From: a bacterium
GTDB taxonomy: Bacteria; Patescibacteriota; Dojkabacteria; SC72
Assembly (NCBI GenBank): GCA_022840695.1
Contig: JALHDC010000005.1
Location: 1 to 60,403 of the forward strand
Length of the DNA: 60,403 bases
Direction: 5' to 3'
Positions 24,547-28,200 of the stretch are shown here, in pieces (position 1 is the stretch's first letter; each line of letters opens with the position of its first letter). Below the pieces are notes generated by a model that saw only the letters and a program-made list of their open reading frames with translations, was not told the DNA's origin and made no database searches. The position numbers were made by a program, and so were the translations under genes.

Positions 24547-25209
24547 CTACTTTCTTACTGCAGTAACTATTAATCTCTTGTAATCTGTACCTGCTGGCCA
24601 ACAAGTCATAATAGTTAGAGTATCTTCATCCATATATTTACCTAAATACTTTGTTTCAGATGGATCTACCTTCTTAATTTCTAATACCCTGTATGTATAT
24701 ATCTTTTCTTGATAGCTTACATATACAGGATCATCTTTTTTAAGTTCTCCTAAGAGGTAGAAATATATGTTAAATTTACGTTGTTCATAGAAATTTACAG
24801 CAGAGTGTGCAAAAAGAAATACATTACCCTCCATATTTGGTGTAGAAGAGCCCTTAGCATGTGCTACACCCTTGTAGAGAGCATTAATATACTCTTCTTC
24901 ATCATTTGGATTAACATCTTGTATTACAGGGGCATTTGCCTTTATTTTAGGTATATATATACCAAAATGAGGATCTAGTAATACAATATCTGTACCCTTA
25001 GATATATTTTTTGTAATATCTTTATCATCTTTAACAATCTCTACAGGTATATCTGTATTAGGTGGAAAAAGTATGTAATCTATATATGATTTTAGTATTG
25101 GATAGAAGGTTAGTACTAGGGATATTAGGCCTGTGAGAAGTAGTAAGATAGCGACGTATCTTACTACCTTCTCCCTTTTGCTAGTAGGTTGTTTTTCTGT
25201 TTCTGACAT
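24547..25209 (-). CDS. Sortase
   Basis: N-terminal TM, GVAHAKGS, FLFAHSA (His), LTIMTCWP (Cys), YKRLIV (Arg). Confidence 0.92.
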   Translation of the reverse strand: MSETEKQPTSKREKVVRYVAILLLLTGLISLVLTFYPILKSYIDYILFPPNTDIPVEIVKDDKDITKNISKGTDIVLLDPHFGIYIPKIKANAPVIQDVNPNDEEEYINALYKGVAHAKGSSTPNMEGNVFLFAHSAVNFYEQRKFNIYFYLLGELKKDDPVYVSYQEKIYTYRVLEIKKVDPSETKYLGKYMDEDTLTIMTCWPAGTDYKRLIVTAVRK

Positions 25210-28200
25210 ACATATATCCTATACCACCTGCTAGGAATATTACAACTATTACTATTAATCCAATGTTACTTTTCTCTTCTGTCTTATCTTCTTTTTCCTC
25301 ACCTATTTCTTCACTTTCTTCCTTTTCTACTTTTTCAGTATCTTCTGGAGTTTCTTCTTCACCTTTAACTTCTGCATCTTCACTTTCTTGTACTGTTACA
25401 GCTGTTGGAGTTGTTGATGTAGGAGTAGTAGTTTGAGTAGTCGTAGTTGTAGTTGTTGCTTCTCCTTGTACTTCTACTGTTTGAATAATTGGGTCTGTGA
25501 CAATTGGTGATGTATTACTTACACTATCTACACTTCTTACAGCATAGAAGTATTCCTGTCCACATACAGGTATAGTGTCTGTGTATGTGACACTTTGGTT
25601 GGGTGATACGGATATTTCTTTAATTAGGGTGGATGCATTTGCACTAAATGGTTGTACTGTGGATCTAAATATCTGTACTTTTGTACTTTTACTTCCTGTT
25701 GTAAATGAGAGTATGTATGTACATATTCCTTCTGTTTTAGTGTAGTTTGTAATTGGTGTAGGCATTTCTAAATCTACTACTACTGTTACGGGTTTTGATA
25801 TTTTGTAATCTCCACTTCCATCGTTAGCTGTAGCTTTTACAGTAAATGTATATGTACCACTTCCTGTTAAAATGGATGAATCTACTAAGCAGGTTCCACT
25901 GTATGTACTGTGTGTTGCATATTTACCGTATGTTGTTTCTAGGCATTCTATGGTTAATGGTCTAGAGTCTAAATCTAATGCTACATAGCTAATCCTAAAG
26001 GATGTCTTGTTAGTTGGTGTTTGTGGTTGACTAATCTGTACATTGATTTTTTCATTTTCACTAGCATATGTTGCTTTAGGTGTTAGGAAGATACTCATTC
26101 CCAAAAGTAGTGTAGTAGCTAAGAGTAGTACATTTACCTTCTTTTTGGGTTTAAAGAGTAGGAGTATGAATCCTAGTATCATTGATACTATAGCTCCTAT
26201 TGTAATTAGGATATTTGCTCCTGTACTTGGTAATTCTATATTTTGAATTGTAGTTGCACCTAATACCTCTCCCTCTTCTAATTCTTCCTCTGCAATTACT
26301 AGTACCTCTGTACCTACAAAGTTTTCTGTAGGTTCTACACTAGATACTCCTAATACAGATCCCTCTAGTATGTCTTCTCCTGATACCCATGCTATATCTG
26401 GATAGAGACCTGGTTCTTGTGTGGTAGATATGAGGGCTTTGTATGTTAGTATAACTATATCTCCTTCCTCCATATCTCCTATTTCCCATTTAGCAGGTAC
26501 TCCATTGTACACAGGTTCATTGGTTGTCCCTGTCCAACTTCCTAGTATGTATTCAAATCCTTCTGGTAGGATGTCTGTTACTACAACGTTTTTAAGTAAG
26601 TATTCACCATCAGTATCATCTTCTGGTGCTTTTACTATGATTGTATATGTAACAATGTCTTCTGTACTCATTCCTAATCCACCTGTATCATTTAGTTTTT
26701 CAATTTCAAGTTCTGGAGGTATAACATAGTTTCCAAAATTATACTCAGGTTCTGGTTCTATTAAGAAATTTACAGTCAAAGGATAGGTATTTGGATTATC
26801 ATCTGGCAACGTTATAATATGACAATTATCATTCTCATTTATTGGGAATGATTGAAGCCAACCATCTTGAGGTACTTCACATACTTTATACTGTCCTGGA
26901 AGTAAATCCTCAAACCAATACCAACCAAAGTGTTCGTCAGTATCATCTGTTGTTGTACTTTCTATTGGTTCTTCACCGTAATCTTCTCCGTTCCATCTGT
27001 AAAGATTAATAGTCCAATCAGATAGTAATGGCTCTGCCCATTCTCTACAATAATTTTCTTGTAATAATGATCTCTCTAATAATTCGTCTGAACAATCCCT
27101 ATACCCATTACCATTAATATCTTGCCATTTGTATCCATGTATATCAGAGAGTTTAGCATTTTCAAATTCTAAACTTGCACTATATCCTGATGTAGTTAAA
27201 CTAATACCTTCACATACTGGGTATTCATCTGTAGCTCCGGAAAGATTGTTTGCTGGATTAAATAGGGATCTCATATCTTCCCATCCATCCTTTTTAATTT
27301 CACAGATCTTATACTCTCCTAATGAACTCATTTGATTTTCAAAGGAAGCTTTACCAGAAGAATTGGTGTCCTCTTCTCCTATTAATGTCCATTGAGTATC
27401 TTCAATATAGTACAAGCGGAAGGTGAATGTAGGGTCTCCAATTAAGGACTCTTCTCTACCTTCACTTCCTAGAATGCCATCGGTATCTTCGTATTTATCA
27501 ACATAGATGGTACCATTTTCAAAGTTTCCGAAGTTATTGTTAATGGATATCTCTCCAGAAGTTATTTCAATGGGTCCTAGAAATTCGGTGTTTGGATATG
27601 TTTGGGTCCATCCTGATTTTAGTACTTCAGTTAGGTAGTATATTCCAGGAGATACTCCAAATCCGAAATATCCATCTGCTTGGGAGAATACACTTCCTGG
27701 TTGTGAGACCTTTTCTCCATTAATCTCTTTCCATAATTTAATTTCCCATTGGCTATTTGGAGCTTGTTCATTAGAATCATATATACCATCTCTGTTTGTA
27801 TCTTCCCATTTATATCCCTCAATACTTCCATTTTTATAGTTACCAAAATCATATTCTAAGAGATTAGATCCTGCTGATAGGACAACTCCATCGTAGTAGT
27901 TTACTCCTGCACTAGGATATGAGACATTCCATGGATAAGGTGAATCTTCAATGATTTTGTATGTACCAGGAAGAAGGTCTTCAAATATATATATACCATT
28001 TGAGTTTGTTGTAGTAGTAAAATCTATTGTTCCATCCCCATCTTTATCAAGTTTAATTGTCCAGTTATCTAGTCCTTCGTCCTCTGCATCTCTTACGCCA
28101 TTGGCATTCATGTCCTCCCATTTAATACCGGATATTGATCCTAATTGAGTATTAACGAATCTGTAAAGGAAATTTTGACCACTTTGGGCTGAACCAAAAC

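Follow-up and report, generated by a model that had tools for sequence, protein, structure and literature searches.

The DNA considered here, 60,403 nucleotides (nt) of contig JALHDC010000005.1 (assembly GCA_022840695.1, positions 1 to 60,403 of the forward strand), belongs to a tiny uncultured Dojkabacteria bacterium and is hereafter referred to as the window. It includes a giant open reading frame (ORF) whose product appears to join two exported proteins: an adhesin that ends in a sortase sorting signal and, in the same frame, a small FN3-like membrane protein, named here the partner. The gene for a sortase overlaps the end of this ORF. The features of the ORF that surround and follow the sorting signal, and the sortase gene, are listed below by window coordinates; amino acid (aa) numbers are those of the ORF product and TM stands for transmembrane segment.

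25181..33325, minus strand: adhesin-partner fusion ORF, 2714 aa in one open frame (translation).
26258..26272, minus strand: GEVLG, aa 2352-2356, nearly invariant and located just before LPxTG (homologue alignments).
26219..26233, minus strand: LPSTG sortase motif, aa 2365-2369, with the predicted cut between T2368 and G2369 (translation, Pfam, alignment).
26153..26218, minus strand: TM1, ANILITIGAIVSMILGFILLLF, aa 2370-2391, the putative stop-transfer helix of the sorting signal (hydropathy; helix in an AlphaFold2 model, model residues 31-51).
26138..26152, minus strand: KPKKK, aa 2392-2396, predicted cytoplasmic basic loop, both sorting-signal tail and n-region of the putative internal signal peptide (translation).
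26063..26137, minus strand: TM2, the putative internal signal peptide, VNVLLLATTLLLGMSIFLTPKATYA, aa 2397-2421 (hydropathy, core aa 2397-2415; homology to the N-terminal signal peptides of split relatives).
25775..26047, minus strand: partner domain 1, an Ig/FN3-like beta-sandwich, about aa 2427-2517, with invariant Cys2461 and Cys2479 (AlphaFold2 predicted local distance difference test, pLDDT, 94-98; Foldseek; alignment).
25499..25750, minus strand: partner domain 2, an FN3-like beta-sandwich, about aa 2526-2609 (AlphaFold2 pLDDT 94-98, Foldseek).
25268..25486, minus strand: disordered stalk, Thr-rich and then acidic, about aa 2614-2686, with EV.GE motifs (AlphaFold2 pLDDT below 50).
25184..25267, minus strand: TM3, aa 2687-2707, and the short basic cytoplasmic tail RNRKTTY, the putative membrane anchor of the partner (hydropathy, AlphaFold2).
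24547..25209, minus strand: sortase, 220 aa, with an N-terminal TM and the motifs FAHS, TIMTC and R-LIVT (PF04203, E=3e-24); 29-nt overlap with the end of the fusion ORF.

The sorting signal of the window has the pentapeptide, the hydrophobic segment and the basic tail, and aa 2363-2396 match the Pfam family Gram_pos_anchor with 22.7 bits (cut-off 20), but it is not located at the extreme C-terminus: there is no stop codon after KPKKK and the frame runs 318 residues beyond it. TM2 follows the pattern of a Sec-type signal peptide, with KPKKK as n-region, VNVLLLATTLLLGMSIFL as h-region and TPKATYA, which has small residues at positions -3 and -1, as c-region, although it is internal rather than N-terminal. 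Signal peptidase I is predicted to cut between nucleotides 26063 and 26062 (TYA/SENEK, where the slash is the cut and SENEK starts at aa 2422), generating a new N-terminus on a peptide that begins with SENEKINVQISQPQTPTNK. A Kyte-Doolittle scan identified only four hydrophobic segments in the 2714-aa protein, namely the N-terminal signal peptide, TM1, TM2 and TM3. The earlier note on this DNA had described a complete internal sortase signal at about residue 2365 of 2714 not followed by a stop, a second hydrophobic segment with a signal-peptidase-like site before SENEK at 26063/26062, an Ig/FN3-like region with a Thr-rich and acidic stalk and a final TM after the junction, and an overlapping downstream sortase gene. 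Translation, hydropathy and the Gram_pos_anchor match confirmed the first of these, the positions given for the second were exact to the base, the region after the junction was found to consist of two domains, the stalk and TM3, and the downstream ORF is the one that matches PF04203.

The possibility that an internal translation start generates a separate partner was considered and rejected, as there is no in-frame ATG, GTG or TTG from K2392 to L2409/M2411. These two residues sit inside the h-region of TM2, and a start there would produce too short a signal peptide. A Met is present in the basic loop of some homologues (e.g., P0016 and P0037) and is not conserved.

In the AlphaFold2 model, built for aa 2340-2714 from a 24-sequence alignment, the TM1 helix, a five-residue loop and the TM2 helix form a hairpin that is followed by two beta-sandwiches, about 75 disordered residues and the TM3 helix. 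A Foldseek comparison of the partner with the PDB retrieved tandem FN3 pairs (neogenin, DCC, integrin beta-4) with E values of about 5e-8. A pilin/CnaB fold and a PapD-like chaperone fold, which comprises two Ig-like domains, were rejected for the partner, since the top of the Foldseek list includes generic tandem FN3 structures only. Pfam and NCBIfam searches with the partner gave no family above noise, the CD1107-like match (24.8 bits, cut-off 26) covering only the acidic stalk and the TM, and no Pfam peptidase family was found after the hairpin. The stalk has features of its own. The motif G-E-V-x-G, found before LPxTG as GEVLG, occurs again in the acidic stalk before TM3, where the copies in the window are VEVQGE (25459-25476) and AEVKGE (25357-25374). 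Of 180 tails, 159 contain it, and the mean copy number is 1.53, compared with 0.32 for shuffled stalks; in distant relatives the stalk copy reads literally GEVLG or GQVLG. As a consequence, the TM3 region looks like a second sorting signal devoid of LPxTG, and the motif might serve for docking, glycosylation or shedding. In one homologue of 1576 aa (P0035) an extra domain of about 100 aa (…GYVLFEEKGVEGVSITIYY…) is located between the partner stalk and TM3, indicating that insertions are tolerated in this part of the protein.

The junction DNA, AAACCCAAAAAGAAGG, is A-rich, and a stop codon could in principle have been lost, or an indel gained, in the KPKKK codons during sequencing or assembly. 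We give this explanation practically no credence: metagenome contigs from a digester, a landfill and sludge, obtained in three separate studies, span the junction without a single indel, and a locus with a partner region only 54% identical (L001), as well as many others, keeps the same frame in spite of a different junction DNA. The L001 junction reads …LGAIISMIIGFLLLIVNPKKKIQTFVIV…TYA/VAEK in an open frame, and an overlapping sortase gene comes next. A protein identical to the 2714-aa product is also on record, in contigs of up to 68.6 kb. The earlier note had allowed for the case that relatives carry a stop after KPKKK, pointing to a recent fusion or a read error; this case does not apply, as the independent assemblies are free of indels. 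The fusion must be old because a whole clade, down to 38% identity, carries it.

A search with aa 2300-2714 retrieved 50 giant proteins of 1525-3132 aa with 29-75% identity, most of which cover about 99% of the query; those that carry a name are Candidatus Dojkabacteria (WS6) or Patescibacteria. The order G[EQ]VLG-x-LPxTG-TM-basic-TM-AxA-'V.I.QP.TP…' is found in one frame in every one of these proteins whose module alignment reaches the junction. An exhaustive HMMER search extended the matches of the tail to 607 clusters (representatives at 50% identity, E<=1e-3), and about 170 giant homologues with 27-75% identity carry LPxTG-TM-basic-TM-AxA in one frame. A canonical LPxTG lies at most 110 aa upstream in 159 of 181 module-bearing proteins, a sample that is biased to fused forms through its query, since about half of the Microgenomates loci in a scan of GTDB genomes described below are split; about nine more of the 181 have variants such as YPDTG, LAQTG or LAVTG. 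When aligned, the L, P, T and G of the motif are each conserved in 160-167 of the 181, the remainder being almost all gaps that correspond to truncated sequences. In an alignment of 24 curated tails with 27-75% identity (alignment A1), the invariant positions include G-x-V-L-G, P-x-T-G, a Gly of TM1, the two Cys of partner domain 1 and the -1 Ala of the putative signal-peptidase site; position -3 is occupied by a small or aliphatic residue throughout, and Pro is often found at -6/-5. On a larger and rougher alignment the -1 Ala was present in 148 of 174 sequences. The loop between TM1 and TM2, measured in 163 fused tails, has a median of 6 residues, with a median of 4 Lys plus Arg and no Asp or Glu in 143 of them, and obeys the positive-inside rule in all 163. 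Judged from these alignments, the features of the junction exceed chance. In a Shapirobacteria-like subgroup (L037, L041, L051, L059 and L069), MPATG or MPSTG takes the place of LPxTG in the fused junction, a substitution that may reflect a shifted sortase specificity.

Some of the shorter matches are complete stand-alone partners in which an ordinary N-terminal signal peptide replaces TM2 (e.g., MNKILIAIFSFILSISLFASVALA/AGLSVRIEQPKTP), and the segment homologous to TM2 is N-terminal in P0098, P0123, P0130, P0131 and P0179. Four such split loci were translated (L002, L003, L007 and L008). In all of them the adhesin ends in …GE[VI]LGAS..LPxTG-TM-(K/R)RRKYE-stop, the stop overlaps the ATG of the partner by 4-8 nt, and the codons of the basic tail encode the Shine-Dalgarno sequence (AGGAG) of the partner; the sortase gene is next in three of the four, those with a contig long enough. 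In L002 (2925-2949), for instance, the tail codons …AGG AGA AAA TAT GAA TAA also carry the Shine-Dalgarno sequence and the ATG of the partner. On this comparison of sequences, the units joined in the window are separate, translationally coupled genes elsewhere, each with its own complete topogenic signal.

The distribution of both forms was followed in a GTDB scan that used one genome per species and a narrower alignment (A2); 110 loci were found and 80 kept, from Daviesbacteria, Gottesmanbacteria, Levybacteria, Collierbacteria, Roizmanbacteria, Shapirobacteria, Woesebacteria and others. Thirty-six of these loci are fused and 40 are split, with 4 left unassigned. An ORF with LPxTG terminates at the partner start in at least 32 of the 40 split loci, and in 23 of these 32 the overlap is 8 nt. 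The overlap has the form ATGnnnTAA in these 23 loci, which have a detected upstream LPxTG ORF, and in L002, L003, L007 and L008; with such an overlap a one-base frame change turns a split locus into a fused one or back. A maximum likelihood tree built from the partner domains shows Dojkabacteria as a clade that is fused throughout (20 of 20) and Microgenomates as a mixed one. Parsimony on this tree requires six changes between the fused and the split state, at least two of which are forced by well-supported branches, one example being a split locus whose sister group, with 98% support, consists of two fused loci. The alternatives considered in the earlier note, homologues that keep the junction in frame or split it into two genes, are therefore both represented: all Dojkabacteria homologues that reach the junction and about half of those of Microgenomates are fused, and the other half are split. 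Two side observations were made on the loci of the scan. L010, L012, L017, L020 and about 30 others are titled 'uncultured Gammaproteobacteria', 'Pseudomonadales' or 'Thermodesulfobacteriota' and yet nest among Microgenomates, so that their record titles are probably wrong. In L004 (15623-17816) and L005 (16431-18356) the cassettes are found amid unrelated neighbors (murB/alr, glycosyltransferases, tRNA synthetases), suggesting that the adhesin-partner-sortase unit moves, or is kept, as a self-contained block.

The sortase accompanies both forms of the locus. Its gene is directly downstream in the window and in L001, L002 and L004-L008, and 78 of the 80 GTDB loci have a same-strand sortase match immediately downstream. 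The window sortase retains the His, Cys (in TIMTC) and Arg motifs. Among PDB chains it is closest to class C pilus sortases (E=7e-9), and it falls below the NCBIfam class_C_sortase cut-off (75.1 bits against 160) while passing that of the generic sortase TIGR01076 (61.9 against 39.35).

Taken together, we consider it probable that the ORF represents a natural and conserved fusion, joining two proteins of one adhesin-partner-sortase cassette that are exported separately, and that the precursor is resolved by both cuts; one precursor would most likely give rise to two surface proteins. The N-terminal signal peptide would direct the Sec export of an adhesin of about 2,340 aa with VWA, SpaA and SdrD-type domains until TM1 halts transfer, leaving KPKKK in the cytoplasm. 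TM2 would then re-insert with its N-terminus in and its C-terminus out, acting as an internal signal peptide that carries the FN3-like domains and the stalk outside, and TM3 would halt transfer again, so that the precursor would be a protein with three TMs. The dedicated sortase would cut LPST/G and move the adhesin to a nucleophile of the envelope, most likely a peptidoglycan precursor because murB and alr are found near the loci of relatives, and signal peptidase I would cut after TYA/S. The expected products are the anchored adhesin, a 53-aa TM1-KPKKK-TM2 hairpin in the membrane, and a 293-aa type I membrane protein consisting of two FN3-like domains on a Thr-rich and acidic stalk. The partner would thereby arrive in a 1:1 ratio at the very spot of the membrane where the sorting signal is located. 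As fused and split forms interchange freely with LPxTG, basic loop and AxA equally intact, the mature products should match in both forms. The polyprotein proposed in the earlier note is thus supported, as far as sequences can tell, by the fused and split relatives, the repeated switching and the equal conservation of the AxA site; its suggestion that KPKKK serves both as sorting-signal tail and as signal-peptide n-region also fits, the same codons being tail, Shine-Dalgarno sequence and ATG in split relatives.

Several points weigh against this reading. We infer both the LPST/G and the TYA/S cut from the sequence, together with the topology, the nucleophile and the role of the partner. An uncleaved TM2 would likewise have to retain a hydrophobic helix, though not obviously an invariant Ala at -1. 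The partner is devoid of a known family and has only a generic FN3 fold, and the role we give it in anchoring is a guess. The [aliphatic/small]-x-Ala site shortly before the first strand was found, with like residue preferences, in all 36 fused loci and in 36 of the 40 split ones by a detector that is permissive, the four misses among split loci being failures of anchor detection.

If the sortase cuts LPST/G and TM2 stays uncleaved as a signal-anchor, the product would be a three-TM protein from G2369 to Y2714 with an FN3 ectodomain tethered at both ends. TM2 has the length of a helix, with 18-20 uncharged residues, at the long end for h-regions of signal peptides, and internal signal peptides are sometimes left uncut. 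We nevertheless regard this outcome as unlikely, though it deserves more weight than the other rivals. The invariant -1 Ala, the small or aliphatic -3 residue and the frequent Pro at -6/-5 in alignment A1 speak against it, the c-region is kept equally in fused genes and in split ones, where it is part of a true N-terminal signal peptide, and the repeated switches between both states argue for identical mature products.

The relationship of the sortase to class C pilus enzymes, which use protein amines, raises another possibility: the adhesin-LPST acyl intermediate might be joined not to peptidoglycan but to the partner, either at its new alpha-amine or at a Lys of the FN3 module. Such a covalent hand-over would agree with the strict 1:1 coupling through fusion or 8-nt overlap, with the appearance of the new N-terminus at the membrane face beside the sortase, and with the fact that the adhesin has about 25 residues from its last domain to LPSTG while the partner bears a long stalk of the wall-spanning type. 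On the other hand, the partner has no invariant Lys (at the most conserved one, K2530, 84% of the sequences have Lys and 13% have Arg), the +1 residue after AxA is variable, and the fold is that of a generic FN3 rather than of a CnaA/CnaB pilin. Moreover, if ligation did no more than remove the hairpin, an adhesin joined directly to the partner, with neither LPxTG nor sortase, would be an equivalent solution that should occur, and none was found among the approximately 170 fused proteins, of which all but four have LPxTG or a recognizable variant and those four retain the TM hairpin. We therefore see the hand-over as improbable. If it were true, fused forms would undergo a two-enzyme 'splicing-out' of the TM hairpin and split forms a trans-ligation, and bacteria of the candidate phyla radiation (CPR) would display adhesins on a protein pedestal independent of peptidoglycan.

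It could also be argued that the internal LPxTG is vestigial, that the chain with three TMs is not processed and that the fusion is a tolerated read-through of two genes, particularly as the 1-nt frame change needed at the 8-nt overlap makes a neutral origin possible. However, LPxTG, GEVLG and the basic loop hardly vary among sequences in which 25-73% of the positions differ, the dedicated sortase is kept in nearly all loci of the scan, and the fusion is fixed throughout a deep clade, all of which makes this explanation very improbable.

The partner is probably an accessory or scaffold for the sortase-adhesin step, as its location between adhesin and sortase and the strict 1:1 coupling suggest.

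The closest parallel that we are aware of is the streptococcal IgA1 protease/ZmpA and ZmpB, ZmpC and ZmpD, which have a signal peptide, a non-terminal LPXTG, two hydrophobic segments and a proposed second signal-peptidase site (PMC3518915, citing Bender & Weiser 2006 and Takenouchi-Ohkubo 2006). The window ORF shares with these proteins the non-terminal LPXTG, the two hydrophobic segments and the second signal-peptidase-type site, as well as the concept, here predicted, of one precursor cut by sortase and signal peptidase. There is no homology between them, and the arrangement differs: the Zmp proteins have a short piece before an LPXTG near the N-terminus and a large zinc metalloprotease after the hairpin with no further anchor, whereas the window ORF has, in the usual orientation, a giant adhesin before LPSTG (at 2365 of 2714) and, after the hairpin, a small pair of FN3 domains carrying a stalk and TM of its own; its family has a dedicated adjacent sortase and split two-gene forms, a kind of evidence not available for Zmp. 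Compared with the canonical C-terminal signal, the window has the same LPxTG, a TM of about 22 residues, a Lys/Arg tail and a cognate sortase with His, Cys and Arg, but the signal lies 318 residues from the C-terminus; in split relatives its position is the textbook terminal one. The cassette resembles sortase-assembled pilus operons in its VWA-headed SpaA-type adhesin, its class-C-like sortase and a second exported protein in fixed ratio. It differs from them in that it has no shaft pilin, the partner is FN3 rather than CnaA/CnaB and has neither its own LPxTG nor an invariant pilin-motif Lys, and the sortase, unlike pilus class C enzymes, is below the NCBIfam class C cut-off.

Internal signal peptides that are cleaved are known from other polyproteins. 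One of them is that of the FbcH cytochrome b/c1 precursor of Bradyrhizobium japonicum, which our literature search did not confirm. In these polyproteins, as predicted here, an internal signal peptide comes after a membrane segment, and two membrane-associated proteins are parted by signal peptidase; they are unrelated to the window ORF and have no sortase step, whereas here the first half would leave by transpeptidation rather than by a protease. Flavivirus and hepacivirus structural polyproteins, as described in PMC7601889 and PMC5402940, also have internal signal peptides cut by signal peptidase. Within the CPR, the Pam pilus is encoded by a sortase-free operon that includes PamC and PamD, membrane-anchored PapD/FimC-like chaperones with a C-terminal TM that help to assemble a surface fiber (bioRxiv 2026, PMC13278184). 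The partner resembles them as a CPR envelope protein with two Ig/FN3-like domains and a C-terminal TM, a resemblance of layout only, since the Pam operon has neither sortase nor LPXTG, the model of the partner matches tandem FN3 domains, and Pfam finds no PapD domains in it. Our literature searches for this architecture in CPR bacteria found no description.

Upstream of the C-terminal cassette, the remaining features of the ORF and its 5' region are the following.

33405..33433, minus strand: promoter-like TTGATA-17-TATAAT (11/12), about 80 nt 5' of the adhesin ATG (consensus match only).
33239..33325, minus strand: N-terminal signal peptide, aa 1-29 (…PSVKA/IDF; basic n-region, hydrophobic core, V-K-A).
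31883..32356, minus strand: VWA domain, aa 324-481, the putative adhesive head (PF00092, E=7e-13).
26726..31768, minus strand: stalk of SpaA-type prealbumin-like and SdrD-B-like repeats, about aa 520-2200 (Pfam: SdrD_B 3.6e-63, SpaA 3.2e-42, SpaA_4, SpaA_2).
26378..26671, minus strand: DUF11 (CLIPPER) domain, about aa 2219-2316, the last folded domain before the anchor (PF01345, E=1e-8).

The DUF11 domain is the start of the C-terminal cassette conserved across homologues. No site comparable to TTGATA-17-TATAAT was found near the internal junction, and the presence of the sole strong promoter-like site upstream of the whole ORF fits one transcript that includes the adhesin-partner fusion and the sortase.

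CPR genomes are enriched in sortase systems, which more than half of them encode, and such systems are near-ubiquitous in Microgenomates (PMC6744442). The analysis described here defines, in these episymbionts, a three-part cassette, composed of an LPxTG adhesin, an FN3 membrane partner and a dedicated sortase, that is represented in at least 607 clusters and at least 110 GTDB species. Annotation pipelines call such ORFs single 'repeat' or 'LPXTG' proteins, and the second product is missed. The repeated switching between one gene and two coupled genes provides unusually clean comparative evidence for the resolution of a precursor by sortase and signal peptidase, in effect a natural substitute for an experiment on polyprotein processing, and the conserved C-terminal cassette is small enough for testing in a laboratory host. 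The partner appears to be an undescribed and widespread accessory component of CPR sortase cassettes, and the switching between both forms suggests that sortase-mediated display has a new accessory factor, supplied in stoichiometric amounts.

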